This document shows, piece by piece, positions 170 through 53,524 of a DNA stretch of 53,524 bases. The stretch comes from a virus (taxonomy: Duplodnaviria; Caudoviricetes). Below the pieces are notes generated by a model that saw only the letters and a list, made by a program, of their open reading frames with translations, was not told the origin of the DNA and did no database searches. The translations under genes and the position numbers were made by a program. The stretch spans positions 1 through 53,524 of IMG/VR virus record IMGVR_UViG_3300020045_013114; one strand, written 5' to 3'. Numbering within the stretch: the first letter of the stretch is position 1; each line of letters begins with the position of its first letter.

Positions 170-278
170 TAGAATAAATTATAAGTCAGTGTTTAAGAAA
201 GAGTTGCACTAGTCTTGAATTTAAAAATCTTGTTTTCTAGCCTTTATTCGGCGGAAACAAAAATAGAGAGAATTAATC

Positions 279-1022
279 ATGTCAAAATTGATAGACCGAA
301 AAGGAGAAGTATATGAAAATAGTAACAAAGAAAAAATTGTAATTATTGAGTATACAAATTATAGAAACGTATCTTTTATGTTTGAAGATGGAACTATAAT
401 CAAAAACCGAGAATATTCTGATTTAAAGAGGGGAAAGTTTAAAAATCCAAATAAACCTTCAATATATGGAGTTGGTTTTATAGGTCAAGGAGAATATCCG
501 TCCAGTATAAATAATAAAGTCTTAAAAAGTTATATATGTTGGAAAAGCATGTTGTCAAGAGTGTACTATGGTAAAGAATTATCATATAAAGATTGTACAG
601 TAATAGAAGAGTGGCACAACTTTCAGAATTTTGCCAAGTGGTTCTATGAAAACTACAATCCTGAAGTAATGGAGGATTGGCAACTTGACAAAGATATTCT
701 TCAAAAAGGTAACAAAATTTATTCTCCTGAAACATGCTGTTTTGTTCCGCAAGAGTTGAATATGCTGTTTGTTAAAAGAGTTAGAAATAGAGGTGATTTA
801 CCAATAGGTGTTTTTATACATAAAGGTAAAATTTGTTCTCAGATAAGTAATAGCAGTGGCAGGAAGTTTTTAGGTTACTATACTACACCCGAAGAAGCTT
901 TCCAAGCATATAAAACAGCTAAAGAAGCTCACATTAAAGAGGTTGCAGACAAATGGAAACCATTAATCAAGCCTGAAGTCTACGAAGCAATGTATACTTA
1001 TGAAGTTGAAATAACAGACTAG
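279..1022 (+). CDS. HNH-like (His-Me finger) endonuclease family protein with C-terminal AP2-like domain, copy 1
   Basis: WHNFQNFAKWF..LDKDIL..GNKIYSPETCCFVP..N; C-terminal LPIGV..LGYYTTPEEAFQAY; paralogs at 48515 and 52509. Confidence 0.75.
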   Translation: MSKLIDRKGEVYENSNKEKIVIIEYTNYRNVSFMFEDGTIIKNREYSDLKRGKFKNPNKPSIYGVGFIGQGEYPSSINNKVLKSYICWKSMLSRVYYGKELSYKDCTVIEEWHNFQNFAKWFYENYNPEVMEDWQLDKDILQKGNKIYSPETCCFVPQELNMLFVKRVRNRGDLPIGVFIHKGKICSQISNSSGRKFLGYYTTPEEAFQAYKTAKEAHIKEVADKWKPLIKPEVYEAMYTYEVEITD

Positions 1023-1030
1023 TTTCCAGG

Positions 1031-1170
1031 TAACGACGGCTAACAGCTACTAAGCGAATATAGCGGTTTTAGTCTTGAATTTAAAAACAATCTTGTATCT
1101 GTTAAAATCGGCGAAAAACAGTAAAAACAAGGAATTTTAACCCGCTACATCGCCTAGTAGCAAAACGTTA
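1031..1170 (+). repeat. Flavo-1/attC-like long imperfect hairpin
   Basis: TAAC(1041)...GTTA(1167) closing; pairs gctacta/tagtagc, gcga/tcgc, tagcgg/ccgcta, cttg/caag. Confidence 0.6.
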
Positions 1171-1202
1171 TAATGCATAATTTTTTCATATTTTTATTTT
1201 TT

Positions 1203-1231
1203 AAGCAGAGACGTAAAGTTTCTGCTTTTTT
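1203..1231 (+). terminator. Intrinsic terminator
   Basis: aagcagagac-gtaaa-gtttctgctt followed by T-tract. Confidence 0.8.
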
Positions 1232-1232
1232 G

Positions 1233-1264
1233 TTTGTGTATGTTAAATAAGTTTTGTATATTTG
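1233..1264 (+). promoter_or_regulatory. Bacteroidota-type promoter
   Basis: TTTG-N20-TATATTTG. Confidence 0.8.
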
Positions 1265-1423
1265 TGGAATAAAATAATAAGATATGGAAGACTATATTAG
1301 AAGTATGTTTATAGAGGTTTATAATAAATTTATAAATAGCGGTAAAATTACTAATGGAGATGCGCTTTTCTTAAAAATATATTTTAGTAATAATGAAGAA
1401 TTTTTAAAAATTGTAAATAACTT

Positions 1424-2085: not shown

Positions 2086-4786
2086 CACCAAAAACTAGAG
2101 CAAAAGGGATATTTAAAAAGTTTTCAAAAGGAAAAGATGAACATGGGTGGAATCTATGTGAATTTGATAGCTGTGCAAAACAATGCGCATTAATAGTAGT
2201 TGATGAACTAATAAGTCAAATGTTTTCATTAATGAAAGTTTTCAATGAGGATAGAAGTGAATTTGAAGCAATAGAATTAGACTACTGGCAAAAAGTAAAA
2301 CAAGAAATAGAAAAATTATGAAATTACAAGATGAATTTAAAGGATTGGTATATCCTTATTTAGGAAGTGGTATGTTAATAAATGAAAGTGATGAGTCAGT
2401 TATAGAAACTAATTCTAAAATTTGTGAAAAAGTAGCTGAAAATTTTGCTATTGGGTTTGTTGAATGGCTTAATTATAAAAGTTACAGAGCTTATAGTAAT
2501 GGTTGGGCTAATTTTGAAACGAAAGTGGTTAAGGAAAACGAATTGCTACAAATCTATAAAAAAGAAAAAGGATTATGAACGAATATAATACAGTTATAAA
2601 CCTAATAATATTATCTATGCTCAGTGGATTTATAGGATTTACTATCGCAAAATTTATTTATAAAAAATAATTATGATAAGATTTAGTATTAATTCAGAAA
2701 ATAAAACTATAGAACTTCTTAGTGGTGGTACAATAGAAGAGTTGAGAGATTTGTGTGAGAAGTATAAAGATTATTCTTTTTCAGTTTCTTTTGCGCGGGC
2801 AGAGTCCTTAAACGAAGTGCCAAAAACAGAAAATAAAGGAATGGTAGTCGGGGCAAATTATATTAAGTTAATAGGGAATATTGAACACAACTAATTATGA
2901 CAACAGAACGGTTTAAAGAAATAGAAGAAAGAAATAGACATAATCCAATAGTATTATGCTATGAATATTTCCGAGAAGAAAAAGGAGGGAATATGGATTT
3001 ACAATCTTTTCAAAATAACTTTCAGATTTGGATTATGACACAAACATTTGGAAATATTAATGGAGGATTAAATGCTATTGTTGAATATTTAAAAAATAAA
3101 CACAAATGAAACAGATAAATAAATGGAAACTTCTAACAGAAGATATTGTAGATATTTGGATAAGAGAATATTTTGAAATTTCAAGTGACGAAGATGTAGA
3201 TTTTTATTGGATAGGTGATGAAGTCGGTGGTATATTTGAATTTGCCGACTATTTTATTAGTTTTGTAGATGTATTAAACTGTTATAAGCTAAAGATAACT
3301 AAAGAGCAATTCTTTTTATGGAATGAGTATATATTAGATAATCAGTTTGTTAATATTTCTCTCGCCAAATTTATTTTGTCGCCAGAAGAAAAAGATAAAA
3401 AAGAGAAAGAAAATTTGGAAAGATTAAAAGAGAATGTTATATTTGCAGAGCAAGAATTTAATAAGGCTTTAGAAAATTATAAACAATGAGATACACAGAC
3501 CAAAAATCAAAAACAGTTTACGAAGATATTGAAGTAGAAGTGCCTGATGGAGATAGTTATTTTCACACTTGGAATGAAGATGATGAACCTGAATACTACT
3601 ATAGATTGCATATAAAGAAAGACCCTAGATTTGATACTCTATATTATATTGCAATAACTAAAGTCTGCGCTTATGATGACAACTTTTTTGTAAGCTGGAA
3701 AGAAATAAGTGAATCTGAATTGCCGTATAGTTTAAGAGGGTATTTTTGTGGCGAACAAAAGAAAGAAACAATAACAGAAGAGGAATTCAATAAAGTTAAA
3801 CAAGAAATACTAAATAAACTATGAATTTTTACTACGACCCAATCTTAGGATTACAATATACAAATTTACACCCTACTATAATATTAGACATAGCAGTAAT
3901 ACCTAAAGATTTAGATATTAAACAGTTTTTAAAAGAGTGGCAAGAGAGCTATAACTTATTTTGGGATACAGAAATTAATTATTATCCTCAAATTGAAGTA
4001 ATTGGAAACATAACAGAATATAGATTATGACAGTAGAAGAATTATTAAAAGATAAATTAGAAGAATACTACTATGATGAAGATACTATTATGGTAACAAC
4101 GGCATTTTTAGATATGTTTGCTAAAGAATTTGCTAAAGAAAAATGTAAAGAGTTATTAGAGATAGTGGCAGAGAAAGTTGTAGCAACAGTTGCATTTTCG
4201 CCAGGGCAACCTGTTAGAGGGTATGTTAAAAAAGACAGTATATTAAATGCTGTTGATTTAGACAGTTTTATTATTTAACTTTTTCTGCGGCAAAAATGAA
4301 AGAAACAGACAAATATAAATACTGCAATCATCATCACGAACTAACAGAAGAACACGAGATAGTGGATTTTGGAGAGGGAGAGTTTGTAGCAAACAAAAAA
4401 GCAATACCACTTCTAAAAGCTCTAAACGATTTAGGTTTAAGAACTAGAACACATCATATTGACGCAGTTGGCAATAATAATTTCTTTTCTATTATTTTGG
4501 CGGAAAATATAGAAATAGAAGTAAAAACTGTTAATGAAATCGACGCAGAAAGGACTAAATACAATGGACAAAAAGAATTATTAATACAATGGAGATTATG
4601 AGAACAACAAAAAATGAAAAGTTAATTAAAGAGGTAATAGAAACAAGTGAAATGTTATATTATTATACAAATTCTGCACAAAAACTTTTAAATCGACTAC
4701 AAAATACTAAACTCACACGTACTGAAGAAGAACGTTGGAATACTAAAGAAAGATTGATAGAAGATTTAGAGTCATTTACTTATTAA
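2082..4786 (+). other. Run of translationally coupled small hypothetical ORFs (2082, 2318, 2673, 2897, 3106, 3486, 3821, 4027, 4296, 4589)
   Basis: Abutting or overlapping start/stop codons, same strand, phage-typical sizes. Confidence 0.75.
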
Positions 4787-4788: not shown

Positions 4789-4962
4789 ATGAATAGTTTA
4801 GTAGGACAAACGTTAGAATTCGCGCAAAAAGAATTAAAAGACAGAGAATTTAGAATCACAAGAATAGACAATAAACCACTAATGATAACTTGTGATTTCC
4901 ACCCCGACAGATTAAATCTTCAAATAGAAAAAGGAATAATAGTAAAAGTAACAGAAGGATGA
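4789..4962 (+). CDS. 57-aa potato-inhibitor-I / I78-like serine protease inhibitor (absent from the ORF track)
   Basis: MNSLVGQTLEFAQKELKDREFRITRIDNKPLMITCDFHPDRLNLQIEKGIIVKVTEG; LVG...T.D..PDRLN....G pattern. Confidence 0.75.
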   Translation: MNSLVGQTLEFAQKELKDREFRITRIDNKPLMITCDFHPDRLNLQIEKGIIVKVTEG

Positions 4963-6992: not shown

Positions 6993-7600
6993 ATGCGCAC
7001 ACCCCTCTCTCAAAATGTACCTATGCTTATATAAGCACCCCCCTATAAGATTTTAAAAAACATACCCCCACCCTAAAATAGACGTTTTAAGAGCTTAAAA
7101 ATTTTAAGTGGATAGTTAGTATTGTTTTTGATAGTTTTTTAATTGTAGTGGCTATTTTTATGCTTATAAGTACTACTATTAAAAAGTGGATAGATGTATT
7201 TGTAGGTGGCAGGATAAAATTGGGTTATACGGATTACTGACACCTACCACTTCTCAAGAACAGCTATACCCCCACCGAGCTTTTCTGGGGTACTCCCTAT
7301 CTTTGCTATACATTTTATTTTTTGAAGCCTTAAAACGCCTTATTTTGACTTTTATTTTGAAAGTTTTTATAAGGCTTTTATATTTTATATTTGTTGTTGG
7401 TTTATATGTGTTATATTGTTTTGTTAACTGTTCCTTTCTGTTTTATTCTTTTTTGCGCGAAATTCTATGTATTTATTTTATTATATATTGAATTGTGCGC
7501 GCCCGTTATACAACAAAAAAAGTTAATATCCTAATGTTTTTTATTTTTTTCTAAGTTATTTTAGTCGTTATTTTGTCCTGTCGCTAATGACAAACAAACT
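6993..7600. other. Long non-coding region, candidate genome end or packaging region
   Basis: No credible ORF; C-runs, short palindromes, T-rich block; gene style changes downstream. Confidence 0.4.
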
Positions 7601-7918
7601 CTTATTAATCTTTAAATACTTTTATATTATGAAATCAAATAGAATAATACTTACAGTAATGAAACAGGATAACACTACTATAACAGTCGTTACCAAAGAA
7701 AACGAAAGTATAGACGATTGTTTAATTCGTCGATGTCCTGATTATAAAGCCTATAAAATCGTATAATTATGAAACTATCTAAAAGCATTGCAAAGCGTGT
7801 ACGTACTAATTGGTATTATATTAATCGTAAACCGATATTTGTTTTATCAGTTCTTTTCTTTTTAATCTTTTTTTGCGCAAATTTGCTACTTAATTTAATT
7901 AACTTAATCTAATATATT

Positions 7919-8587: not shown

Positions 8588-8755
8588 ATGGAAGCAATTA
8601 CATATCACAGGAAGCCAACCAAAGGCGAAATAAAGTTTGGCGAGGGTGCAACACATTACAAAGACTTTGAGCCGTGTTTTTGTTGGAATGACAAAACAGA
8701 CAGTCCAAAACGTTGGTTAATTTGTCCAGTTGATGGATTAAGGTATTACTATTAA
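8588..8755 (+). CDS. 55-aa small phage protein (absent from the ORF track)
   Basis: MEAITYHRKPTKGEIKFGEGATHYKDF...DGLRYYY; resembles small proteins of crAss-like/Bacteroidota phages (from recall). Confidence 0.65.
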   Translation: MEAITYHRKPTKGEIKFGEGATHYKDFEPCFCWNDKTDSPKRWLICPVDGLRYYY

Positions 8756-8881
8756 TCTATTTTTCGGGCGAAAAGAAAATTAAAACAGCAAAGATAAACA
8801 AAACAAATTTAATAAACAATAGTAAAGATAAAAAACTTTTATTTACCTTTACATAGTCTAACAAATAAAACATATACTATT

Positions 8882-9226
8882 ATGAAAACTTCACTTTACA
8901 CATTTTTTGAAAAAACAATTATTGATAACATCGATTTTGAAGGGTACGAAATAAGTAACGATTGTTATTTATACGACAAGATTAAAACCCTTTACAATAT
9001 CTTTAAGCGCGAATACGGATTTATGATTGAAAGGATAGGCGAACAAAAAGCATTTAGCGAATGGTTGCAAGGTTTACCAAGTGCGTTAACAGTTCCGTTT
9101 TATTATAGTGAAATTTTAGAAAATGCCTTAATTGCTGGTATAAATGTACAGGATGAGGAAAAGTTTTGTTTAGAGTATTGGGATAATTTAAGTAGTGCTT
9201 TTTTTACTCTTAAAGATAACCTTTAA
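8882..9226 (+). CDS. Hypothetical early protein
   Basis: 114-aa ORF with EWLQGLPS motif; TACCTTTA promoter-like box upstream. Confidence 0.75.
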   Translation: MKTSLYTFFEKTIIDNIDFEGYEISNDCYLYDKIKTLYNIFKREYGFMIERIGEQKAFSEWLQGLPSALTVPFYYSEILENALIAGINVQDEEKFCLEYWDNLSSAFFTLKDNL

Positions 9227-9689
9227 TTTTTCCGCGCAAAAAGAAACTAAACAGAAAAACTATGTTACAAACACTAACAGTTTATAGAGAGTGGGAAAGT
9301 AGCTATAATATGCTAACTATCTTAAAAGATGATAAAGGAAAGGTAAAAGCCATTATACCATCGAGCATAAGGCAACCAAGACGCGGACAAAAAACAATAA
9401 AATTAAATTGCTGGACTTGGTTATTAAATTGGGAACACGTACCAAAGGAATATATAAAAGTAAAGGATAGAGTTTAAAAACAATTTAAAATAAATAACTA
9501 TGTTAGATTTTTTATTCGGTGAACAAAGCATCACCATAAGCAAACCAATACACGGAAATTTAAACAATATATTTAAGGTTCGTTATATAGGATATACTAA
9601 AAAGGAAGCAAAAGAAAAGTTTAAACAAGACTTTAAAAAGGAACAAAGTAAGTATTTTATTAATATACCTTAAAATAGTTGATAATATG

Positions 9690-9730: not shown

Positions 9731-9990
9731 TCAATGTTTAACGGTTTAAAAACTTATCAATGGGGTATATCGCAAAGGAAATAAGCACAAATAAAGTGTA
9801 TTATAGCAAAGGAGCAAACAAAATAAGCGAAAAAATAGGGTGCAACTACTCTACACTAACAAAATTTTTCAATTTAAAGGAAAATATCGGCAAAGAAAAG
9901 ACTATAAAAGGGTTTATTATATCAAAAACAATCGATTTAATCAACCAAAATAGGGGAAATAATATAAAATTCAATGTTTAACGGTTTAAA
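9731..9990 (+). repeat. Exact 20-bp direct repeat TCAATGTTTAACGGTTTAAA (9731-9750, 9971-9990)
   Basis: Read directly; brackets ORF 9760-9981. Confidence 0.9.
9760..9981 (+). CDS. Small HTH DNA-binding protein
   Basis: GANKISEKIGCNYSTLTKFF helix-turn-helix pattern; basic. Confidence 0.6.
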   Translation: MGYIAKEISTNKVYYSKGANKISEKIGCNYSTLTKFFNLKENIGKEKTIKGFIISKTIDLINQNRGNNIKFNV

Positions 9991-10567
9991 CGCTTATAGA
10001 TTTTGCGCAAAAACAAATTAAAAACAGAAAAAATGAGAACTAAAATAGAAAACAGTCTAATACAATTAGCAAACAACATAAAAGATAAAGGACTATACAA
10101 AACAATACAAACAATCCTTTACGGTAACAGTAAACACATAGCACCAAACGAATGTAAGTGGTAAAATTATTGTTAGATGCGTCTAAATATAGGTTAGGAC
10201 ACCCCTAAACAAATTTTTAGTCTTGTCTAAAAAACACTAAAACAATCCTCCCAAATCAGGGGCGCGCTATCTAATACCCTAAATAATAACCTTAACAAAC
10301 ATTAACATTTAAAAGCTATGGAAACCCCAAAAGAATACGCACAAAGAAAGTTTAAAGAAAACAACAGTATGAAAGGTTTAGCAAGAATCTTTATAAGTAA
10401 TATGCTTTACAATTCTTTTTTACAGTCAGATAAAGATTTTTATTCTGATGCTTTGAAAGAATTAGATTTGCTCTAATTTCTTTTCGCGGCAAACCATTAA
10501 CAAACAACCATTATAATTAAACCTAATAGCATTTTTAACCCTTTTAAAGCAATAAAAATTTAAAGTT

Positions 10568-12396
10568 ATGCAAGTACATACATTTAGCACAGGAGGTTGT
10601 ACAGATGGAATTTATTTAGAATCACTATCTTTGACAAAAGAAGGGGTTTCTAATTTAATTGATACGCATTTTGATAGAGAATATATCGATAGGGATTTTC
10701 AAAAAGCAGTTGTTAAAGGGGATAGAATTATAGTATCTTATATTGATACGGATACAAAGGAAGTTGAAACAGAATCTTATAGGTTAATTTCTTTTGATGT
10801 TTATTAATCTTTTCCGCGCGAACTTACAATTTAATAAACAAAACATTACTACAATCAATTTAAACAACAGTAACAACCCTTTTAAACCATAAACAAATGA
10901 AAACAACATCTAAATACCAACAAGCAAAAACAAGGCTTAAAACGCTTGCAAAAGATATAAAACTATCGCACCCAACAGACAAACCTATGATAAGAATGGT
11001 TATTAACGATGGCGTTGATGCTTATACAGGATACTTTAGTCTTTCTGACTATCAAAGGGATTTATTGTCTAATTATGCTTGTAAATTGCATCCTAAAAAT
11101 TAACTGTTCTTTTTAATTCTTTTTTGCCGAAAATTAAAAACAATATTAAACCACTAAAAAATTAAATTATGGAACTTAACGCGAATCAAATATTAACTTG
11201 GCAACAAGCGTATGAATGGCAAAAGTTAGAAACTCCAAAATATATTACAGGTTTTAATCTTAAAACACATAAAGAATTTATGAAGCCGTTTTTAAAAGCG
11301 GGTTATATACATAAAGATACTTTAAAATATACAGGAGTTTTTAGACTAACTAAAAAAGGAATAGAAAAATTTGAGGAATTAAAAGACCAGCTTTAATTTT
11401 TTCGCGCAAAAACAAATAAAAACAGCAATTCAATACAACAATATTTTCAAATAAAAAAATTTATTTTCAATTATTTTAATCTTACATTTGTAATGTAATA
11501 AAAACACTAAAAATTATGAAAAATATTCCCTACGATTACCTTTATTTAGGTTTTGCTTTAGCCTTTTTTGCCGATTTATCTTTTTTAAATTGGAAATTTT
11601 ATGCAATACTCATACCTTTTGCAGTTTTTGAAACTTTTAAAAATTTTAAAAAGAATTAACTATGAATACAAATTTAGAAAAAATACAAGACCTGCTTTTT
11701 AAAAGATTTAATACTTCAATCGATGTTAGCTATGAAAATTTTAGATACACTATTACACCAACCGACAATATTAAATTAGCAATGGAGTTGGAAGTTGAGG
11801 TTGATAGCGAGGATTATTTTTATGACCTTGATAAAATAGAAACAGCAATTAATTTATTATTCTTATGAAACCATTAGATAGATTAAGAGAACAGTTTTAA
11901 ACCTCTCTTTAATTCTTTTTCCCGCGCCACAATAGTAAACAAACACCAAACATTTAATTTAAGCATATTAACAGCCGTTTTAAGGCACAAAAAATAAAAT
12001 TATGATATTAGAGCCACCAAAAACAAAAGAGGACTTTGAAGCTATAAAACACACTATTATAGAACTTATGCAAAATCCCTATGCGGATGGAAGAATGATT
12101 GAAAAATTAAAAGTAAAACTAATTAACACGGAAAATAAACTTAAAGAATTATAATTATGAAAGATATAGTATTAACAGATATGGGCGAAGTAATTGATAA
12201 TTTAGTCCGTGATTATGATTGTAGTCAATATTTAATGGATTGGATTTTGGCAAGGATTAATGAAATAGAAGAGAGAGATAATAATTTTGTCTTAATTCGT
12301 GAAGAGGAAGGATTAGGATACATATTAGACGAGTTTGATAACTTTGAGGACGAACCAATTGAAACAACTACATTTTGGTTTGAGGATTTTCAATAA
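10568..12396 (+). other. Loosely spaced early-type ORFs (10568, 10897, 11169, 11662, 12157)
   Basis: 68-79 aa ORFs with A/C-rich spacers; promoter box TACATTTG at 11483. Confidence 0.65.
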
Positions 12397-18169: not shown

Positions 18170-18317
18170 AAAGTAAAAAGATGGAAACAAAGTTCACTAA
18201 AGCAATGGAGTATTTCAACAGCATTATCAATAAAGTTGAAAAAGGGAGTAAAGAGTATAAGCTAATGTGTTTGTTGAAATATAGGTATATTCAGGATTAT
18301 TAAAAAATCTGTTTTTA

Positions 18318-18349: not shown

Positions 18350-18368
18350 TAAAATAAACTAATAGCAG

Positions 18369-40689: not shown

Positions 40690-40749
40690 TAGAAGAAAAT
40701 CCGTTTAAATCTTTTTTTGCGGCAAAAATAAACAAATAAAAAAGAAATT

Positions 40750-42828
40750 ATGAGATACATTATCATACCACTAGTAATTATACTCTACATTTGGTGGAGT
40801 TATAAATCAATTAAAAGTTTAAGGAACAATAATGCTAAAGAATTTGCCGAATTTTGGCTTATAGTTCATATAGTTTTACCTGCTGGATATCTATTATTTA
40901 AACTTACAGAATTTACAATAAATAATTGGTAATCTATGGAAAATAAATATGTAGTCGGATTTCTAGAAAGAAACGGCTTTATAAACATAGAAGAAGAGGT
41001 ATACAGTAATGAACATTGTACAATTACTTTATTTGAAGACCATTATAAAATTGAATATTGGGATAGCGATTGGATGGATAATGTTTGTACCTATACTCCA
41101 AATCTGTCTATTTATTTTTTAGCGGGATATTTATCTTATATGGACTTTATTCCGCGTGGATATAATAAATAAAATTAAAAAATATGGAACTACAAAATAA
41201 AATAAGAAACCGATTAGACGAATTAGAGATTGAAGAGTGGTGGGATTATGGAGATTATAGAGAAATCCGTGATAAAGACTATACAGCAATTAATATTCTG
41301 AATGATGCACTTGAAGAACTACTGACAAAAGAACAGTTATATGAATGCTTAGGACATTTTGCTTATAAATATGGAATAACTATTAATGGAGCTGATATAG
41401 ATAAATGGCTTGAAAATTTAGAGAGATGAGAAACCAACCAAAATTTATTTATCTCCAGACAGGATTAGAAGACTGCGGAGAAACTTGTAGTGACTTTGAT
41501 GAATTAGATATGGTATCTTGGTGCGTAGATAAGATTTATTCTGATGATTTACAATATATTTCTGTTTCTAGTGTTTTTGCGCGAATAAAAGAATTAGAAA
41601 AAGATGTTTATATAGACCCAAATGATAAAAAACAAAGAGTTAAGGAGCTTAAAAACTTAATAAAATAATGGAAAGACAGATAATTTACAACGCAATAATG
41701 ACTCCTGATGGGACAGTCTTAGAATCAAAACATAGACACGATTATGTAACTCATTTAGATAAAAACGGTGAAGAATATATGCTTGATGGTGGGCTAGATT
41801 ATACAAGAAGAAGCATAAATAAGGAAGAAGCTAAAGACATTAGTTTATATTCTGATGCGCCACACGAACAAATTAGAGATAAGGTATCTAGAGGAGGTAG
41901 AGGCTTGGATGGAACTGAGCCTTTAAAGTATGTCTTATTAAAAGATATAAACAACAAATGGTTACAAGCTATTATTGACTATGAAGAGTTGTATCGCCCA
42001 CAAAATAGATTTCTACAAATTTATAAAGATGAGCAAAAATTTAGAAACAAGTAGTTATGGCATCAATAGAATTAAACAACAATCAACTTCGCCTTATTCA
42101 AACTGCTTTAGACTTTTATAGTAGAATTGGCATCTTACAGTTGGATAGAATTCTGGAACACCCTTCAGTTGAATCTTTATTAAGAGAACAATTTATACCC
42201 AAAGAAGAGCTAAAAGTAGGAAGTCAGACAGAAAGAGGCGAAATTACCAAAATAACCAAGAAAGCCGTTTGGACTAAAGGACGTTGGGGCAATGGTGAAG
42301 AAGTTAGAAAATGGACTGATATTGAAAATGTAAAACTTTCTATTGATTATGGGGAATATCGCGCAAAAGAAGATGAAATAAAAGACCTTCTAACACAAGT
42401 TAATTCTATAGTTTATGGTAAGCCTATGACAAGAAATATGTCTTTAGGTATTTATAATGAACAAGTTGATGAATCGTGTAGAGAAGCATTTTCAATAGTA
42501 AAAAAGATACGTCATCAATTTTGGTTAGCAAATTCAGACAGGTCAAATATGACAGTTGATTCAACAGACGGTAATAGTAATGTAAAAGTAAGATTAGATG
42601 AAAGCAAAACTAATATTTAAATTGCCAGAAGACCAAGTAGAATTTGAACAATGCTCTAAAGCAAGTGATTTGGCTTTTATTATTTGGGAATTTTGTCACA
42701 ATAGTAAAAAATCACTGATTAAATACGCAGATGTTTCAGAAGAATATGAAACAGGTGTTGAAGCAGCATATAATAAGCTTTATGAGCTGTTAGAAGAATA
42801 TAATATTAATTTAGATAAACTTGTATGA
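40750..42828 (+). other. Hypothetical ORFs (40750, 40936, 41184, 41426, 41668, 42057, 42598)
   Basis: Coupled ORFs; 41668 has the common phage motif LES.HRHD...DGG.DY.RR. Confidence 0.75.
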
Positions 42829-43733
42829 TTGAGCCAACCTTTCAGTACTACCCATCTAATGTAAAAATAACTCGTCCTTTAGGAACAGTTAGTCTGTCTT
42901 CTTTTATTTCCGCCAATCAAAATCCTAAACAAGAGGTTCAAGAATTATTTAAAAAAATTCAAGTTGCGGGAGAAAAAGAAAAACAGGAATTAAAACAACA
43001 GTTATTTTATTTTACTCCTTGCGTGACAACAAATGGTCTTGGAAGAAGCTATTCAGATATTGAATTTTTCAATGGGATATGTGTAGTAGAATTTGATAAA
43101 ATACCTGACTTTGCCCATCAACTAAGGGATTGGATTTTTGATAATTTTGAAGAATGTTTTTGTGCCTATGTCAGCCCTAGTGGAAAAGGGACTAAGAGTC
43201 TTTGGAAGATACCTTGTGTAAAATCTGTTGATGAGTTCAAGGCTTATTTTTATGGAATTGCACAGAGATTTTCAAAGATACAGGGCTTCGATGGGAGTGC
43301 CCAAAACCCTATTTTGCCTCTCTATTTGTCGTGGGATAAATACTTGCGTCACAGACCTTATGATGAAGCCAAAACTTGGACTACTAGGGGCGGAAAAATA
43401 AATGAATTTAAGCCGTTTACTGGAGAAATTGAGGTATTAGAAAGTGTAGATGAAAAAGATTTGGACAGGATATTCAGAGCCATTGACCAAACGTTTAATA
43501 AAATTGATAGGGAACAAACTGCTCATTTTTTACTACGAAATTTAAGTCTTTGGATTGGGGGTCTTTGCGGATACGGATATTTAACAACGGACGATGCTGC
43601 TGACTATATTTGCGATAAAGTTAAAGAATCCCCTTATTGTATAAAAAATGAAATAGGTTACTGTACTACGGTTCGGGATTTTATTATAAAAGGTAGTACT
43701 TCACCATTAAAATTAGAAGAGGATGACAATTGA
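42825..43733 (+). CDS. Primase-like protein, BT4734/VirE N-terminal AEP type
   Basis: K..L.YFTP, G..VVEFDK, YVSPSGKG.K, FD.S......LYLSWD. Confidence 0.8.
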   Translation: MIEPTFQYYPSNVKITRPLGTVSLSSFISANQNPKQEVQELFKKIQVAGEKEKQELKQQLFYFTPCVTTNGLGRSYSDIEFFNGICVVEFDKIPDFAHQLRDWIFDNFEECFCAYVSPSGKGTKSLWKIPCVKSVDEFKAYFYGIAQRFSKIQGFDGSAQNPILPLYLSWDKYLRHRPYDEAKTWTTRGGKINEFKPFTGEIEVLESVDEKDLDRIFRAIDQTFNKIDREQTAHFLLRNLSLWIGGLCGYGYLTTDDAADYICDKVKESPYCIKNEIGYCTTVRDFIIKGSTSPLKLEEDDN

Positions 43734-43819
43734 TTCAAGATGGATACAAAAAGATTTTAAACAAAAATACTACCTTTTTTGCCGCGAAAAAAAGATTGAA
43801 CAAATAAGCCTTAAAAAAG

Positions 43820-43917: not shown

Positions 43918-44355
43918 ATGAAACAAAATGAAATAAGATACGCAGGTAAACAAGTCTTTGCTAATCAAGATGAATTAGAAGAAGGATATGTTGAAATAGT
44001 AATCAATATAGACGATATATTAGAGGAAATTGATGATGAGTATATTGCCATATATGCAAGATATTCCTTGAATATGAGACACGAAGATGATTTTGAAAGT
44101 TCTTTGGACGATTTTGATGATGACGAATTATTAGAAGCCTTAAAAAATAACTATTATAATTTTGCAAAAGAAGTTGAAGAAGACGAGATGATTGAATATC
44201 TTGAAGAGCGTGGATATACTGTTGAGGCAGATAGTAGAAGTACTCCTGAATATGATTATGTTGATAACTGTTTGTTTTATGATATTGTAAATAAGTTCAA
44301 TTCCTTAGATTGTTTTTCGCGCCAAAAAATGAGAGATTTAATAATAAATTTATAG
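43918..44355 (+). CDS. Highly acidic protein
   Basis: About 40 D/E versus about 13 K/R in 145 aa (hand count). Confidence 0.75.
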   Translation: MKQNEIRYAGKQVFANQDELEEGYVEIVINIDDILEEIDDEYIAIYARYSLNMRHEDDFESSLDDFDDDELLEALKNNYYNFAKEVEEDEMIEYLEERGYTVEADSRSTPEYDYVDNCLFYDIVNKFNSLDCFSRQKMRDLIINL

Positions 44356-46432: not shown

Positions 46433-46461
46433 AAGGCTCTCAGAAATGGGGGTCTTTTTTT
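46433..46461 (+). terminator. Intrinsic terminator
   Basis: aaggctctca-gaaa-tgggggtctt + T-tract. Confidence 0.75.
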
Positions 46462-46505
46462 ATTTCTTTTTTCGCGAAAAATTAGAATAATTCAATTATT
46501 AGTTG

Positions 46506-46539: not shown

Positions 46540-48310
46540 ATGGATAATGAAGCCTATTTGTCGGAGAGTTGTAAAAATGAAAGTATCACTTACTTTGATA
46601 CGGTTTGGGGTAAAAATATTCCTCATATAAATATAGGTTCTGAGAGTAATCCTTTTTATCTTCCACAAGAAATGTTTAAGATAACAGATGAGCACAGAAA
46701 ATATTTGGTTAGAAATTTAAAGAAATTATAATTATGAAAAACAATAAAGGATTATTTGTAAAAGACCCTCAGAAATGGAGAGTTCCTAGAAAGTTAAAAA
46801 AGAAAATACCTAAAAATACACACTATTGTTATACTCCCACTTCAGAACCTGGAATAATGGAAGACGGTAAATGGGGCTATGCTATTAAACTCTGTGGTTT
46901 TTATGTCTATAGGAAATTAAAGGATTTAAAACCTGATTATTTAGATGCAGAAGATTTAATTAAATATGGTGAGGAGAGAGTCGGGTGTTGTAGTCTTCTT
47001 AAATGTGAGATAGATGATTGTTGCAAAAATTGTGGAATTAGATACTAAGAATTATGAAAGAAGTATATTTAGTTAAATGGTCAAGTGGTAGCTATGATGA
47101 CTATACGGAAAATAATTTAAAAACTGTCTTTTTATCTCTTTCTTCTGCCGAAAAAGCTAAAGAAGATTTGGAGACTTATAATAATACAGAAGAGCCTTTT
47201 CCTTTTGAAGCAATTTATGACGTGGAAATTTTTGAAGAATTATTATATTCAGATAAACTAACTACAGAAGATATAAATTTATATGATAAGTGGCGAGATG
47301 AAAAATATCAAAAAGAAGATTTTAATGGAGCGTGGATTGAAACATTAACACTAGAAGAATAGATTATGACACACAAATGGCACAAAATCTATAAGAAATA
47401 CGGCTTACACAGCTTACCAAAACTAAATAAAACTGTTGAGATTTTAGTAGATAAAAGTGTTTATAAAGCTAAGTTAGTTATGGAAGATATTCCTTGTATG
47501 ACTTTGGATGAACAGCTTTATTGGGAAATTGAGAATTTAGGAAGTTTTTGTTTAATTACGCCAGATTTTTGGCGGGAGATAGATAATTATGGAATGGATT
47601 AAGGATACTCGTTATACTAATGTTTATTATATCTCTAAACAATTTAATGGCTTTCAGTATAATGCCATTATGACTTTAGAAGAAACTGATAAATCTGTTA
47701 AGTGCTATTTTAGTGCTTCATCAGGTAAGAAGCGTAAAGAGTTTGAGATATTTGAAGATAAGGATTCTAAATCATTTGGAGGGATTAAAGCTTTGTTTTG
47801 GCTTAGAGACTGTCTAGTTAATTTTCCAACTTTTTTCGCGCCAAAATTATATGGAAGAAATTTATACCTGTGTGTAGCTTGGTCGGACAACAGAAGAAGA
47901 AATATTTATCAAAGACTTGAAAAAGAAGGTTTTGTTTTTATGAGAGAATATAGAAGTAAAATATTAATGAAGAAAATAGAATTATGATAGAACTTAAAGA
48001 CGGTATTAACTACCACAACTTCCTTTTAGATATTAAGAGTAAGGAGTGGTTCAAACGGCAGAAAGAAGAAACAATAGGTCAATGGCTTAAAAGAACAGCT
48101 TATCAAGGTAATGGATTTCCTAAAAGAGATGGTACAAATGATAGCTTTAAAATTGCTGTTTCTATTTTATCTTTTTTGCGCGAAAATAAAATTGAAAAAG
48201 AGACATTTGAAGACTTAGTTGGATTTGAAGTAGATTTACACGGACAATTTGATTATCCAATATCTCAGATTAGAAAAATAGAATTAATTATAAATAAAAA
48301 ATTAGTATGA
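46540..48310 (+). other. Hypothetical ORFs (46540, 46734 Cys-rich, 47054, 47366, 47589, 47984)
   Basis: Coupled ORFs. Confidence 0.7.
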
Positions 48311-48513
48311 AAAAATTATTATTACTTGGAATTTGCTGTTTATTTTTTAGTTGCGGCAAAAAAGAAGAATCAAAATACCCTATTGAAGTACTTATCTTTG
48401 CAACAAATGAATATGGACATACTTTTGAAGTAGACTCTATACAAGGAAAGTTTGCCTTTAAAGATGGCAGGAAAATAGAATTAAAAAATGTTGGATATAT
48501 TAAATTTAAATAA
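48307..48513 (+). CDS. Small lipoprotein
   Basis: MKKLLLLGICCLFFS-C lipobox. Confidence 0.7.
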   Translation: MKKLLLLGICCLFFSCGKKEESKYPIEVLIFATNEYGHTFEVDSIQGKFAFKDGRKIELKNVGYIKFK

Positions 48514-50732: not shown

Positions 50733-50899
50733 TATAATTCAAATTTATCACAGATTTTACTCTTTAATGTAAGAGGTTCTTCTGTTAGGTTACATTTATG
50801 TAGAACTCTTCTTCCTTTGCTGTATCTTTTGAAGTTTTTGCAATGCTTGCACTTAGCGTCGTAGAATATTTCTACTCTTATTGCTCTATTCTCTTCCAT
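50732..50899 (-). CDS. 55-aa Cys-rich protein (absent from the ORF track)
   Basis: MEENRAIRVEIFYDAKCKHCKNF...HKCNL...ICDKFEL. Confidence 0.6.
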   Translation of the reverse strand: MEENRAIRVEIFYDAKCKHCKNFKRYSKGRRVLHKCNLTEEPLTLKSKICDKFEL

Positions 50900-51257
50900 A
50901 TTGAATTATTTTAATTTTTATTCCTTTCTTTTCGGCGAACTTAATTGTTGAAGCAGTTCCATTTGAACCCGTTGTTATTGCGATTAGATATTGTGAAGCT
51001 TCTACTATTTGTTTATTTCTTATGTGTGTTGCTCCTTTTCCGTATTGTTTGTAATCGGGTAAATAAATTTCTGTTTTTAATCCTTTTTCGGCGGCGTACA
51101 GCTCAGATATTCTATCAATTCCAACACAACCTCCACTTACAAGTACAACTTCATATTCTTCTAAAAGTCGCGCCAAATAAAAATCTAAAGAAGAAAAAAC
51201 AAATTCCCTGTCATTTATTTCACGACTACCCACTACACCGACTTTGATTACAGACAT
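50886..51257 (-). CDS. SLOG-family (YspA/DUF2493-like) protein
   Basis: VGVVGSR, VSGGCVGID, IRNKQIVE, S.GT..TI..A. Confidence 0.85.
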   Translation of the reverse strand: MSVIKVGVVGSREINDREFVFSSLDFYLARLLEEYEVVLVSGGCVGIDRISELYAAEKGLKTEIYLPDYKQYGKGATHIRNKQIVEASQYLIAITTGSNGTASTIKFAEKKGIKIKIIQYGRE

Positions 51258-51448
51258 AAGAGTAATTTAATTTTATTTTCGCAATACTCTATTATTGAGT
51301 CTAAATCTTCCCTAGTTCCAACTTTTTCTCTGTGCTCAAATGCCATTTTTCTATATTCTAATAGTTCTCTTAACGGATTTGGATATTCACTATAATCTGC
51401 TCCAATAATTTGCTGTACTTTGTACAAATCTTTACTTATGTTACTCAT
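51248..51448 (-). CDS. Hypothetical protein
   Basis: 66-aa coupled ORF. Confidence 0.6.
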   Translation of the reverse strand: MSNISKDLYKVQQIIGADYSEYPNPLRELLEYRKMAFEHREKVGTREDLDSIIEYCENKIKLLLCL

Positions 51449-51450
51449 AA

Positions 51451-52509
51451 TTAATCAGTTATTTCTACTTGGTAATTGTACATTGCTTGGTAACATCTTT
51501 CTGTAATACACCCTTTCCATTTATCTGCAAGCTCTTTAATATAAGCTTCTTTATGTTCTTTATAAAATAAAAACGCTTCTGTAGAAGTATCAAACTTTTT
51601 TCTTATTCTACTGTTTCCACAAGAAATTCCCGCCTCAAACTTATTTTGACTTTTTGATACTCCTATTGGTAGATTTCCCCTTCTTTTATCAGCTCTGACA
51701 AAACAAAAATTAATCTCTGGAGGTACTAATTCACAAGTTTCAGGTGAATATACTTTATTTCCTTTTACCAAAATATCTTTATCTAGATGAAATCCTAACA
51801 TAGTTACAGGGTTATAAATTTTTTCAAACCAATCTACAAAGTTTTCAAAATTGTGCCACTCTTTGCAAACACTAACACCTAAATAACTGGGACTCTCGAT
51901 TTCTTGGTTCTTACTATAACATCTATCCATCATACCTCCCCACTTATCGTATATTAAAGAGTTTACTTTACTATGGGCATATTTACCTAAATAACCTACA
52001 CCATTAACTGAGCGATGTAGGGGATTTTTAACTGCGCCTTTCCTAAGACTGTGCAAAGTAACATTTCTTAACATATTCTGTTCTGAGAATCTAATAGTTA
52101 AATTCCTACTATTAAAATATTCTATTATTTCTACTTCATATCCCTCATTGGTCATATACTTTGTACCTATCTCGTTGAAAGGTTTCCACGTTGCACCCCT
52201 AAGTATATCAAAATATGGAACTTTTTCTTTAATTACACCATCTTCATATTGTATGGTGCAATTACTAGACCCAAAAATATCTATAATTTTAAAAGGATAT
52301 CCTTGATTATTTGTGTGGATTTCTCCAATATGAAATTTTGGATTCTTAATACTCCCCTTACTAAATGCAGCATATTCTTTTTTAGCTACGATTGTTCCGC
52401 AAGAGAATTGAATAGTTAAATTTTGTGCCCCGTGATATTCTATTATTTCCATTGGGCAACCTTGATAATTTATATTCTTTTCTCCAATTCTATCTGTATT
52501 TTTTCCCAT
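51451..52509 (-). CDS. HNH-like/AP2-like protein, copy 3, with three N-terminal repeats
   Basis: 3x GE....N.QG/EG...I..I......TI.F; WHNFENF..WF..LDKDIL..GNKVYSPETC. Confidence 0.75.
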   Translation of the reverse strand: MGKNTDRIGEKNINYQGCPMEIIEYHGAQNLTIQFSCGTIVAKKEYAAFSKGSIKNPKFHIGEIHTNNQGYPFKIIDIFGSSNCTIQYEDGVIKEKVPYFDILRGATWKPFNEIGTKYMTNEGYEVEIIEYFNSRNLTIRFSEQNMLRNVTLHSLRKGAVKNPLHRSVNGVGYLGKYAHSKVNSLIYDKWGGMMDRCYSKNQEIESPSYLGVSVCKEWHNFENFVDWFEKIYNPVTMLGFHLDKDILVKGNKVYSPETCELVPPEINFCFVRADKRRGNLPIGVSKSQNKFEAGISCGNSRIRKKFDTSTEAFLFYKEHKEAYIKELADKWKGCITERCYQAMYNYQVEITD

Positions 52510-52542
52510 ATTTATTTATTTATTTTGATGTAAATTTAAAAT

Positions 52543-52575
52543 AAAAAATCCACACTACAAAATATAATGTGGATT
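52543..52575 (-). terminator. Intrinsic terminator (minus strand)
   Basis: aatccaca/tgtggatt hairpin with an A-tract on the + strand left side. Confidence 0.6.
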
Positions 52576-52596
52576 AATTTTAAAAATATTGTGTTT

Positions 52597-53524
52597 TTAC
52601 TTTTCTTCACCAAACAGATAGGATAGTGCCACCACTTTCTCAGTGTCTTCGTTAAAGAATTTATAGCTCTTAGTCTCCTCTTCTATATTCCCTAATCTAC
52701 GTATATCCTTCATAAACGGGACTAGCTTATTAATTTTTCGCCACGATTCCGTTTCACCCTTATATTTTCCCCTTTCAATGATGTCTGAGCTAAAAATTTC
52801 ATACGAAGTTGCTATTTCCTGCATTGTTGTTAATGAAACTACTGGGGATTTTAGCTTTCCAATATATTGTAGACCAATTGCTGAAGTGGATGAAGCTACC
52901 TCATTAGTTGTTCTCACGTTAAAATATATAGCTAAATCAAGTAATTCATTTGCTAATGTATCATCATCGTCATCTCCACGAAGCTGAGATAATAAGAGTC
53001 CAATTAAAAACATTCCATTCACAACTGCAATTTCTGCTCCTGTTCTAGCAAGATTTTCTCTTTGATTTTTTAACTTGTCCAAATCTATGTTTCCATCTTC
53101 GTCTTTTAGGTTCATACCATTCCAAACATTTTTTACGTGCTCTAAATAGCTTGCTCCGTTTCTTTTACTTGCTCCTGTAGTGATATCCTTTATGAATCTT
53201 CCTGCTGTTTGCCAGTTCCCTTCTTCCCAAGCCCCTGTAGCTAAATTTAAATGTCCACTTTTAAACTTTTTAGCCGTTGCTATTAATAACCATCCAGAGT
53301 GTTGTAATAATAAATTAGAAAGTGAGTTTCTTGCTAAAATAGACTTTTCCTCATCTGGTATTGCCATATCTACATCTTGAACTGCTGTCTTTACCCTTGT
53401 TGATATTCCTATATGAACTTGGTCTAAGTATTTATTTAGCTGTTCTTGGTCTGTTATGTTTAATTTTTTGGCGGCATTTGCTAGGTTCATAGAGTACACT
53501 CCATTAGTTGTCTTCATAGCGTCA
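52597..53524 (-). CDS. C-terminal part of a larger protein, possibly a virion or ejection protein; probably truncated by the window edge
   Basis: Frame open to the window end; helical, hydrophobic segment followed by DDDDD, typical of large podophage internal proteins (inference). Confidence 0.5.
   Translation of the reverse strand, partial: DAMKTTNGVYSMNLANAAKKLNITDQEQLNKYLDQVHIGISTRVKTAVQDVDMAIPDEEKSILARNSLSNLLLQHSGWLLIATAKKFKSGHLNLATGAWEEGNWQTAGRFIKDITTGASKRNGASYLEHVKNVWNGMNLKDEDGNIDLDKLKNQRENLARTGAEIAVVNGMFLIGLLLSQLRGDDDDDTLANELLDLAIYFNVRTTNEVASSTSAIGLQYIGKLKSPVVSLTTMQEIATSYEIFSSDIIERGKYKGETESWRKINKLVPFMKDIRRLGNIEEETKSYKFFNEDTEKVVALSYLFGEEK

Follow-up and report, generated by a model that had tools for sequence, protein, structure and literature searches.

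Sites that organize chromosomes or bend DNA, such as those of matS/MatP, Noc, parS/ParB, phi29 p4 and SPO1 TF1, are palindromes of T-rich, GC and A-rich segments that are bound by dimers, occur in multiple copies confined to a domain, and measure 13-16 bp with fixed cores. Stoperators, another class of dispersed sites, are oriented with transcription. As reported for the Cluster A mycobacteriophages L5 and TipsytheTRex, stoperators follow a 13-bp asymmetric consensus recognized by a monomeric repressor with helix-turn-helix (HTH) and Stoperator domains; TipsytheTRex has 26 such sites, at which the bound repressor blocks transcription elongation (PMC9283540). The PeSL cassettes described in T4-type phages combine an early promoter with a stem-loop terminator, lie between the small open reading frames (ORFs) of hyperplastic regions and are tied to gene shuffling (PMC4122927). 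The gyrase motif reported for Escherichia coli is symmetric about a 4-bp staggered cut, with a 36-bp center and 47-bp periodic flanks (130 bp in total); it is described as highly degenerate, defined by a 10.75-bp phasing of GC content and not by specific boxes, and as enriched downstream of highly transcribed operons (PMC6379681). Here we analyze an element of about 43 bp, with a short core of C and G between a T-rich and an A-rich arm, which recurs along a 53.5-kb IMG/VR record of a Caudoviricetes phage (IMGVR_UViG_3300020045_013114, positions 1 to 53,524; the whole stretch is henceforth called the window), for which CheckV gives a completeness of 37%. We tentatively read it as a dyad-symmetric docking or bending site on double-stranded DNA, which may well serve a factor of two-fold symmetry acting on the early arm of the genome.

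Judged by analogy, the element would belong to the dispersed recognition repeats of phages, while differing in make from stoperators, PeSLs and the gyrase motif. It shares with stoperators the dozens of dispersed copies, many of them at gene borders, and the DNA-level nature, and the block to elongation exerted at stoperators is also what we propose for the element; unlike them, it is about 43 bp long, dyad-symmetric and orientation-neutral, with a variable CpG core and a distribution limited to one arm, and the asymmetry and monomer reading that define stoperators do not apply to it. With PeSLs it shares the habitat, a hyperplastic arm of small ORFs in which one 86-nt cassette of element plus promoter is duplicated, but it has no stable stem-loop, its offset to promoters varies, and more than half of its copies lie in genes. 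Both the element and the gyrase motif are symmetric, with a center of about 36-43 bp, flanks extending to 65-100 nt whose composition hints at wrapped DNA, and a link to heavily transcribed regions, whereas the specific boxes of the element, and a word that lacks enrichment in four of five genomes of the host lineage, set the two apart. In comparison with the chromosome-organizer and bending sites mentioned above, the element is longer, has a variable core and occurs at a far higher density. The preliminary description of this DNA, made from its letters, held that the motif matches no recognized element; this went too far, for recognition repeats of a similar kind are dispersed in other phages. 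Generic full-text literature searches returned no description of this motif, which is not proof of novelty.

Excess of the Motif and Selection on It

For counting, the motif was written as TTT-S4-8-AAA, in which S is C or G, and the reversed order AAA-S-TTT served as control. The whole window contains 40 copies, against 1.8 +/- 1.4 (maximum 6) in 100 dinucleotide-preserving shuffles; the form with four flanking bases, TTTT-S-AAAA, is present 28 times against 0.34 in such shuffles, whereas the reversed order is not enriched (4 vs 1.85). An order-3 Markov null produces 3.6 +/- 1.9 copies (maximum 8), and even an order-5 null, which has learned the hexamers of the motif, produces 15.8 +/- 3.6 (maximum 24). 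Within coding sequences (CDSs) there are 23 copies, against 5.5 +/- 1.6 (maximum 9) in 200 within-gene shuffles of synonymous codons and 1.75 after whole-codon shuffling; these two deficits indicate that codon choice and amino acid order are both bent toward the DNA word. In G002, a related fragment introduced below, 30 motifs within CDSs compare with 6.1 after synonymous-codon shuffling. Among 8-letter words, those of the motif rank highest in over-representation, in the window and in G002 alike, and a generic repeat finder independently returned motif words as the largest families. The motif is thus real and under selection above Markov, dinucleotide and synonymous-codon expectations, as the preliminary description had claimed while allowing that Markov or codon-preserving nulls might reproduce the counts; neither does.

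The window has a G+C content of 29.8% and a CpG observed/expected ratio of 0.68, and its CG-rich spots are indeed concentrated, as had been proposed, in the context of the motif: G/C runs are embedded in TT_AA in 32 of 61 cases when they contain at least two CpG, in 29 of 193 when they contain one and in 8 of 121 when they contain none. Among the 55 positions originally listed, 43 have TT-[C/G]3-9-AA within 20 nt, and the remaining 12 are variants interrupted by one base, for example AAAAT-CGGCG-AAAAA at 1109. The strict sites of the window number 46, 25 of them inside a CDS and 21 intergenic or at a gene boundary. Both of the FLRENKIE readings noted at first are present (CDS 25856-26176 and CDS 47984-48310). 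The cores of the 25 in-CDS sites start at codon positions 1, 2 and 3 in 5, 9 and 11 cases, respectively; all three frames are used, and therefore no peptide is encoded by the motif, which rules out a peptide-level explanation. At four sites lying in codons 15-20 of small ORFs (7455, 13541, 43781 and 48353), the T run and a core with TGC read as a hydrophobic stretch ending in F-C, which looks like a lipoprotein signal peptide and could be either reuse of the motif or chance.

Anatomy and Symmetry of the Element

The structure of the element was derived from a pooled set of 248 TTT-S4-8-AAA sites from seven related genomes, each oriented by local transcription; the profiles and counts out of 248 reported below refer to this set. 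Cores of 5 nt are the most frequent (109), followed by those of 4 nt (65), 6 nt (59), 7 nt (12) and 8 nt (3). Over positions 4-30, the profile of the left arm and the reverse complement of the right one agree (r = 0.87), which bears out the strand symmetry noted from the window. Both arms have T (mirrored A) tracts at positions 1-8 and 11-18, separated by a W-rich dip at positions 9-10, a frequent place for the TAA of the upstream gene; C (mirrored G) is preferred at positions 6-7, and outer CTG/CAG occurs in both arms. Within +/-20 nt, the tract peaks lie near -4/-13 and +4/+13, about 9-10 bp apart in each arm. The flanking CTGT and ACAG of the original consensus form position-specific, mirrored peaks, since CTGT starts at -19 to -16 in 40 sites and ACAG at +14 to +16 in 36, while controls with the two words exchanged are flat. 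These outer boxes shift inward with longer cores, such that the calculated span stays constant, being 41-42 bp whether the core has 4, 5 or 6 nt; in the six sites carrying both boxes the span is 42-43 bp in four, and 38 and 45 in the other two. Overall, the element measures about 43 bp and its outer boxes are about 41-43 bp apart, or some four helical turns.

The two arms compensate each other. Their scores are anticorrelated (Spearman -0.20, p = 0.0016), and the sites divide into 76 left-only, 68 right-only, 52 two-armed and 52 core-only forms, with left-only and right-only sites equally near to downstream start codons. This compensation and the equal frequency of left and right forms bear the mark of two half-sites whose summed quality is under selection, and not that of an RNA or cruciform stem or of a directional signal. 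Selection on summed affinity by a symmetric reader would be expected to produce such an anticorrelation; a promoter or an RNA signal with a direction would not.

This observation raises a question: Could the element nonetheless be read in the polycistronic early mRNA, as a hairpin of weak A-U pairing around a GC loop or as a single-stranded U- or A-rich module for translational coupling, ribosome loading independent of a Shine-Dalgarno sequence, or endonucleolytic RNA processing? A-rich unstructured leaders favor initiation in Bacteroidota, and the typical layout in short gaps places the upstream TAA in the left arm and ends the A-rich right arm 0-12 nt 5' of the ATG; moreover, at least six pairs across the core are possible in the minimum free energy fold at 155 of the 248 sites. 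Yet unconstrained 61-nt folds have a mean minimum free energy of -5.03 kcal/mol, matching that of mononucleotide shuffles (-5.09), and when the core is forced open, cognate arms pair worse (mean -1.95 kcal/mol) than arms swapped between sites (-3.08). Watson-Crick pairs at positions 4-22 amount to 1657 in cognate arms vs 1755 +/- 29 with permuted right arms (z = -3.3), and at left-arm C or G positions the complementary partner is no commoner than expected, giving no sign of pairing covariation. These results rule out a hairpin or cruciform. A known structured RNA family, Flavo-1 included, was likewise rejected, the window having no Rfam match at gathering score and the arms no covariation. More than half of the sites are inside genes, distant from starts, and the mirrored details have no RNA rationale absent pairing. 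The RNA reading was already disfavored on these grounds, and we consider it very improbable. The DNA-level code of the preliminary description is upheld, as a better explanation than an RNA-level one, by the lack of pairing covariation and by left-only and right-only arms that are equally common and equally placed. An intrinsic terminator is also rejected, because the order is T run, GC core and A run, with a core too short for pairing; canonical terminators with a GC stem and T run are present as features in their own right, such as those after 29136 and 40612.

Distribution among Phages and Hosts

The nearest cultured relatives of the window are the Cellulophaga phages phi4:1 and phi17:2 (genus Lightbulbvirus, about 145 kb), which have in common with it a conserved protein of 201 aa adjoining the helicase at the equivalent genome position. 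Uncultured relatives with a DNA polymerase 79-84% identical include G001, a complete genome of 146.5 kb with terminal repeats, and G002, a 66.7-kb fragment; at least four further genomes of 130-143 kb came from a scan of viral contigs for one spelling of the motif. There are 53 sites in G002, and 21-38 sites in each of G001 and four of the 130-143 kb genomes, against 2-4 of the reversed order; the seven related genomes that bear the motif, the window among them, have 21-53 copies each. In the five complete or near-complete genomes, the early strand has a site in 57 of 247 intergenic gaps and the late strand in 4 of 94 (Fisher p = 1.3e-5), and the density within CDSs is 0.251 per kb in the early vs 0.061 in the late arm; as this bias is present in non-coding DNA too, it cannot be due to coding constraint alone. 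In all five, the motif-rich arm is the one with small genes and replication genes. The term "genome-wide," used at first, consequently fits the window, a fragment, and not the complete relatives, where copies are concentrated in a single arm. A motif nearly absent from the structural-gene arm is a poor fit to a role in packaging or in the structure of the genome as a whole, and the SMC, ejection-scaffold and decoy roles suggested at first gained no support from the analysis.

The motif is specific to this lineage. In phi4:1 (145.9 kb) it is not enriched, with 3 sites vs 4 of the reversed order, and the 45.9-kb early region of this phage has no G/C run with two CpG. G003 has no sites, but 20 kb is not enough sequence for it to be regarded as a lineage without the motif. 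On the host side, the genomes of Polaribacter, Tenacibaculum, Lutibacter and Formosa, 2.8-4.2 Mb in size, contain 2-5 hits each, no more than the reversed control, whereas the same pattern has 13 hits in the 53.5 kb of the window; a host-wide signal was rejected on the basis of four of five Flavobacteriales genomes without enrichment, the exception being G009.

These comparisons bear upon the possibility that gyrase, the type IIA topoisomerase of the host, acts strongly at the element, with the core as cleavage center and the T/A flanks wrapped on the C-terminal domains; the phage would have evolved such sites to remove supercoils that arise from intense early transcription in one direction. 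Consistent with it are the core of 4-6 bp, the 43-bp dyad with shoulders to about +/-100 nt, the spacing of the tract peaks in each arm and the restriction to the early arm, as well as the lack of any GyrA/ParC of the phages' own in four family genomes and in phi4:1. However, the word is not enriched in four of five genomes of the host lineage, the relative phi4:1 does without the motif, and CTGT/ACAG boxes are not among the gyrase features in the account at hand (PMC6379681). We regard gyrase as an improbable explanation.

Placement Relative to Genes, Promoters and Repeats

Taking the window and G002 together, 30 of 99 cores lie 10-40 nt upstream of a start codon against 7.5 expected, and 23 lie more than 150 nt from one against 63 expected, while no fixed distance from core to start codon is apparent; several short intergenic spacers consist of the element alone. 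As to spacing, the "quasi-periodic" arrangement initially reported holds for the dense stretch of 8.7-18.4 kb only, where the coefficient of variation of the gaps between sites is 0.48 and the median gene length 225 nt; overall it is 0.90-0.94, and the apparent period reflects gene length.

Some of these features could be expected of a directional transcription signal, namely a phage-specific promoter of the middle class or a hairpin-independent pause or terminator at cistron borders, read by the host RNA polymerase perhaps with a phage factor. Phage promoter classes, such as those of T4, have copy numbers in a range that includes 21-53 per genome. The concentration near start codons, the gaps filled by the element alone and the confinement to the early arm would all agree with this explanation, and a T run with a GC block behind it would make for a weak RNA:DNA hybrid in front of a duplex that is hard to melt. 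Against it, the element is symmetric, with left-only as frequent as right-only forms even though nearly all genes are co-oriented; 57% of the sites are in genes, almost uniformly; there is no fixed distance to start codons or to host-type promoters; and canonical terminators and host-type promoters are already found alongside. Furthermore, sigma region 2 was not found in G001 or G002, nor was a T7-type RNA polymerase (PF00940), in a search that was weak inasmuch as control genomes were also silent. The T7-type class II pause and termination signal consists of ATCTGTT and a T run; we rejected it in view of the same weak negative for PF00940 in G001/G002 and of the mirrored ACAG on the coding strand. 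A directional transcription signal is, in our judgment, unlikely.

The host-type promoters themselves were predicted at 79 places, and only 23 cores fall within 300 nt of them, variously upstream, in the spacer or in the 5' leader; having no preferred offset, the element is not a fixed part of such promoters. Their consensus we take to be TTTG...TAnnTTTG, as in Bacteroidota. In the window, TATATTTG occurs 16 times vs 5.0 expected, and a promoter-like repeat of this type (..TTG..N..TAnnTTTGTAGAAtAAA) recurs at about 165, 1257, 9740, 15960, 18342 and 20210, with further copies at about 24100, 29222, 31100, 35290, 40687 and 46510; these repeats are probably early promoters.

Two repeats of the window include the element. 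D9 is a 48-nt direct repeat (210-257 and 1070-1117; 71% identity, the first 18-mer identical) whose copies flank the gene 279-1022, with a motif core at the end of each, and it may be a cassette boundary. D15 is an 86-nt cassette duplicated at 29157-29242 and 35217-35302 (74% identity), in which motif, ACAGATTTTTCTTTGTA and host-type -7 box follow one another; by analogy, it resembles a PeSL-like regulatory module. The presence of both, together with the gain and loss of sites at orthologous junctions, might suggest a passive mobile or copy-pasted cassette of the MITE, RPE or PeSL-like kind, which is propagated through insertion or recombination and itself serves no function. But the site in CDS 17397-17633 differs from the motif-free orthologue in G002 by substitutions and not by an inserted block, and no terminal repeats or target duplications appear in the site listings, which led us to reject an inserted MITE- or RPE-like element. 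In addition, copies share only a degenerate consensus (66-89% to the family references), cores vary in sequence and length, and synonymous sites have been shaped in place; passive spread thus has an extremely low probability.

Compositional Shoulders

Beyond the arms, the composition of the DNA is skewed in mirror fashion. With random nearby positions as controls (about -0.14), (T-A)/(T+A) on the left is +0.009 at -40 to -21 and -0.066 at -60 to -41, and on the right -0.276 at +21 to +40 and -0.223 at +41 to +60, the baseline being reached near +/-110 nt. The ratio G:C at -60 to -21 is 1775:1002 vs 6965:4758 in controls, and on the right side 1434:1118 vs 7025:4748; the excess of G over C is thus raised on the left and lowered on the right. 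To this we can add 12 window sites whose flanks lie within the borders of the host gene, or within 15 nt of them, averaged in 80-nt windows. In these deep sites (A-T)/(A+T) averages -0.011 to the left of the core and +0.177 to its right, around a window mean of 0.119, and is larger on the right in 11 of 12; GC skew is 0.215 on the left and 0.282 on the right, and larger on the left in only 6 of 12. The T/A shoulders persist at sites deep in genes and are therefore a property of the element itself, whereas the G/C component, missing there, may stem from gene borders. Shoulders reaching about +/-100 nt are compatible with the wrapping or bending factor that had been suggested; for such a factor, the searches of family proteins described next have identified no reader.

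Candidate Reader Proteins

Several protein families were considered. HU (PF00216) has sub-cut-off matches in G001 and G011 only, and an HU-like reader encoded by the phage was rejected, given that the G001 protein lacks homologues in G002, G011, G013 and G014 and has but a weak match in phi4:1; this rejection does not extend to HU or IHF of the host. Among 104 small ORFs, matches to HTH domains are weak only (no search for repressor homologues was made). One family, in which an AP2-like segment comes after a degenerate HNH-like block (LDKD...YSPETC...N), is present in all seven motif-bearing genomes, with 16 copies in total; its paralogues in the window are 279-1022, 48488-49279 and 51451-52509 (minus strand), and in G011 and G010 the same module lies inside a thymidylate-synthase-like ORF (L237:10910-12577; L244:18438-19334). 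The family was not found in phi4:1, where the sole match falls in thymidylate synthase. Pfam does not recognize AP2 in the 279-1022 family, a PDB sequence search was empty, and the similarity of the family to the AP2 repeats of the bona fide NUMOD4-HNH-AP2 endonuclease at 37909-38610 is limited to weak pairwise matches. Endonuclease genes lie within 200 nt of sites in 6 of 16 cases, compared with 359 of 1123 other early genes, without enrichment in adjacency. As a reader, this family is a lead only.

The same applies to candidates from the phyletic profile, which is based on one negative genome, phi4:1. The five complete or near-complete motif-bearing genomes have 27 gene clusters in common, seven of which have no match in phi4:1: T5orf172-like, primase-like, GroEL, PhoH, an acidic protein of 148-167 aa, an SSB-like protein (DLPF) and a small protein of the structural arm; the HNH-like/AP2-like family counts as the eighth. 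A protein of 228-249 aa (L013:16484-17203 and orthologues), present in the five genomes and not found in phi4:1, has a Pro/Thr-rich linker and ends in D-L-P-F, presumably resembling the C-terminal tip of bacterial SSB, and its gene always adjoins that of the acidic protein.

A nuclease of this type would be central to another explanation, in which the sites are hotspots of breakage or nicking and recombination: an endonuclease, for instance the HNH-like/AP2-like one, would open the CpG core, and resection would expose 3'-ended strands that seed recombination-dependent replication and gene shuffling, leaving a mirror mutational footprint. AP2 domains bind GC-rich boxes. The skew beyond the arms, with T up and C down on the left and A up and G down on the right, is what C-to-T change on 3' tails might be expected to leave; gene turnover is extreme (25 of 136 ORFs shared) despite polymerases 80-84% identical; and the phage family has a RecA/UvsX-like recombinase besides the bona fide endonuclease of the window and the HNH-like/AP2-like proteins, found in 7 of 7 motif-bearing genomes and not in phi4:1. 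However, endonuclease genes are no nearer to sites than other genes, the G/C footprint is not seen at the 12 deep in-gene sites, and AP2 matches in G001 are sub-cut-off or absent. A genome with 40 targets for its own nuclease would also require protection, and the fixed CTGT/ACAG boxes indicate recognition and not mutation alone. We see breakage hotspots as a somewhat unlikely origin of the element.

A Proposed Symmetric Docking Site in the Early Arm

The docking-site reading put forward at the outset rests upon the symmetry of the element, its compensating half-sites, its constant span, the selection at synonymous positions, the arm restriction, the near-absence from four of five genomes of the host lineage and the lineage specificity. 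The symmetry, the selection, the confinement to one arm, the specificity for the lineage and the absence of a hairpin signal are direct observations. From them we infer a protein reader, its symmetry and an effect of its binding. A site is composed of a CpG-rich core of 4-6 bp, a T-rich 5' arm and an A-rich 3' arm, the outer CTGT/ACAG and weaker shoulders to about 100 nt, and a symmetric dimer, or a larger complex that bends or wraps DNA, would dock on it. This factor, either encoded by the phage or a host protein that the phage has recruited, would contact about four helical turns and influence some 200 bp. The sites punctuate the early/replication arm every 1-3 kb or so, and the likeliest effect would be a control of transcription in this arm by a roadblock, an insulator or a topological barrier, more than by starting transcripts at a set distance.

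Several observations weigh against this reading. A rigid dimer would poorly tolerate a core varying from 4 to 8 bp, and shoulders of about 100 nt exceed most operator footprints, though the skew controls for the whole set were random positions rather than motif-free gene borders. In-gene sites make up 142 of the 248 and are spread nearly uniformly along genes (Kolmogorov-Smirnov p = 0.053), and the association with start codons may partly be due to weaker constraint in spacers. Of the 4-7 genomes compared at an orthologous junction, 1-3 have a site there, although a few sites are shared; owing to this fast turnover, the function, if any, would be collective or weak for each site. The fifth Flavobacteriales genome, G009, has 30 hits vs 9 reversed, and a host-side signal is possible there. 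Finally, no reader has emerged from the protein families searched.

A broader proposition would make the element one spelling of a wider, as yet undescribed class of punctuation, with symmetric sites of T run, CpG core and A run in the early arms of several unrelated phage lineages of Bacteroidota type: a topoisomerase II-like, nicking or homing-type enzyme would repeatedly open or cut the duplex at the sites, leave a mirror mutational footprint on single strands, relieve or insulate early transcription and drive the extreme gene turnover of these arms. We hold this to be rather unlikely.

Genomic Context and Sites of the Window

The genes of the window are on the plus strand up to about 49.8 kb and on the minus strand beyond. 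They encode NrdD, 67-78% identical to Flavobacteriales proteins, with its activase, a DnaB-like helicase, a family A DNA polymerase, a 3'-5' exonuclease, a PD-(D/E)XK nuclease, a MazG-like protein and a primase-like protein, in addition to about 100 small ORFs, nearly all without a family match. The early arm is hyperplastic: only 25 of the 136 ORFs of the window have homologues in G002, and likewise 25 in G001. Two stretches are without ORFs. One, 24563-25314, has 752 nt with no ORF of at least 40 aa and many G/C runs; ARAGORN finds no tRNA in the window, and the scan with Rfam, which covered this stretch, returned 0 family matches at gathering score. The other, 6944-7405, is an ORF-free region of 462 nt with runs of C5-6 and G4 (CCCCCC, CCCCC, GGGG) and no copy of the motif. 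For 1031-1170, which has been read as a hairpin of Flavo-1 or attC-like type, Rfam, which includes Flavo-1, returned no match at gathering score. In phi4:1 (NC_021788.1), four DNA methyltransferase or methylase genes are annotated (gp019, gp028, gp132).

Table 1. Element sites in the window, given as the span of the whole element; no strand is assigned
Span	Type	Core	Location and remarks
230..273	site	CGGCGG (249-254)	intergenic, 24 nt 5' of ATG of HNH-like gene
1090..1132	variant site	CGGCG (1109-1113)	left flank AAAAT; 3' of HNH-like gene, within 48-nt repeat D9
4480..4522	site	GGCGG	CDS 4296-4601
4802..4844	site	CGCGC	CDS 4789-4962
7436..7478	site	GCGCG	CTGT in left arm
7856..7897	variant site	GCGC (7875-7878)	
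8746..8789	site	CGGGCG	intergenic; ACAG in right arm
9213..9256	site	CCGCGC	occupies 35-nt gap 5' of ATG 9262; left arm holds upstream TAA stop
9986..10027	site	GCGC	intergenic; conserved 3' of orthologous gene in G001
10466..10509	site	CGCGGC	intergenic
10795..10839	variant site	CCGCGCG (10814-10820)	
11107..11148	site	GCCG	intergenic; CTGT in left arm
11384..11426	site	CGCGC	intergenic; ACAG in right arm
11902..11947	variant site	CCCGCGCC (11921-11928)	
12747..12790	site	GGCGCG	deep within CDS 12471-12890
13522..13563	site	GCGG	codon 15, CDS 13498-13941
13823..13865	site	GGCGC	CDS 13498-13941
14329..14371	site	GGCGG	3' end of CDS 14177-14365; orthologues in G002 and G001 have the motif at this place too
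15237..15279	site	GGCGG	CDS 14969-15337
15587..15629	site	CGCGC	3' end of CDS 15334-15636
15922..15963	site	GCCG	overlaps host-type promoter (TATATTTG 14 nt downstream)
16330..16374	site	GCGCGCG	occupies 29-nt gap 5' of ATG 16373
16488..16530	site	GGCGG	CDS 16373-16597
16750..16793	site	GCGGCG	3' end of CDS 16597-16797
17032..17074	site	CCGCG	intergenic; ACAG in right arm
17561..17603	site	CCGCC	CDS 17397-17633; G002 orthologue without motif
17952..17994	site	GGGCG	deep within CDS 17630-18169
18308..18351	site	GCGCCG	inside spacer of host-type promoter
19861..19903	variant site	CGCGC (19880-19884)	occupies 35-nt gap 5' of ATG 19912
20314..20357	site	CGCGGG	CDS 20233-20538
24329..24371	site	CGCGC	9 nt 5' of ATG 24362
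25161..25203	site	GGCGC	end of 752-nt ORF-free stretch
26094..26136	site	GCGCG	CDS 25856-26176; reads FLRENKIE
29153..29195	full dyad CTGT..GCGCG..ACAG	GCGCG	between canonical terminator and host-type promoter; in 86-nt repeat D15
29723..29764	site	CGGC	deep within CDS 29434-29877
30214..30257	site	GGCGCG	3' end of CDS 30120-30245; kept in G002 orthologue
31019..31060	site	CCGC	intergenic; ACAG in right arm
33082..33123	site	GCCG	deep within CDS 32837-33268
33322..33364	site	CGCGC	12 nt 5' of ATG 33358; absent at same junction in G002 and G001
35213..35254	variant full dyad	GCGC (35232-35235)	right flank TAAAT; second D15 copy
36786..36829	site	CGCGGC	deep within CDS 36595-37146
37548..37589	site	CGGC	occupies 27-nt gap; ACAG abuts ATG 37590
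40700..40742	site	GCGGC	preceded by DNA polymerase gene, then terminator and host-type promoter; 26 nt 5' of ATG 40750
41560..41602	site	GCGCG	CDS 41426-41668
42891..42933	site	CCGCC	codon 29, primase-like CDS 42825-43733
43762..43805	site	GCCGCG	CDS 43723-43875
44299..44342	site	CGCGCC	3' end of CDS 43918-44355
46454..46495	site	CGCG	intergenic; about 36 nt upstream of host-type promoter -7 box
47818..47861	site	CGCGCC	deep within CDS 47589-47987
48159..48201	site	GCGCG	CDS 47984-48310; reads FLRENKIE
48334..48376	site	GCGGC	codon 16, CDS 48307-48513
50914..50956	only strict site in minus-strand gene block	CGGCG	CDS 50886-51257(-)

Significance

Dispersed recognition repeats are among the few handles that we have on gene expression and genome plasticity in uncultured phages, and in the present case selection on the element is strong enough to override the choice of codons and amino acids. 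If the sites were only operators, or the like, of a repressor specific to this lineage, the addition to a known theme would be modest. The reader, once found, would be a regulator not described before or a host enzyme that marine flavobacterial phages put to new use; it would make the motif usable as a sequence tag for the phage lineage and its early regions in metagenomes, and would allow testing whether the sites drive gene shuffling in hyperplastic regions.

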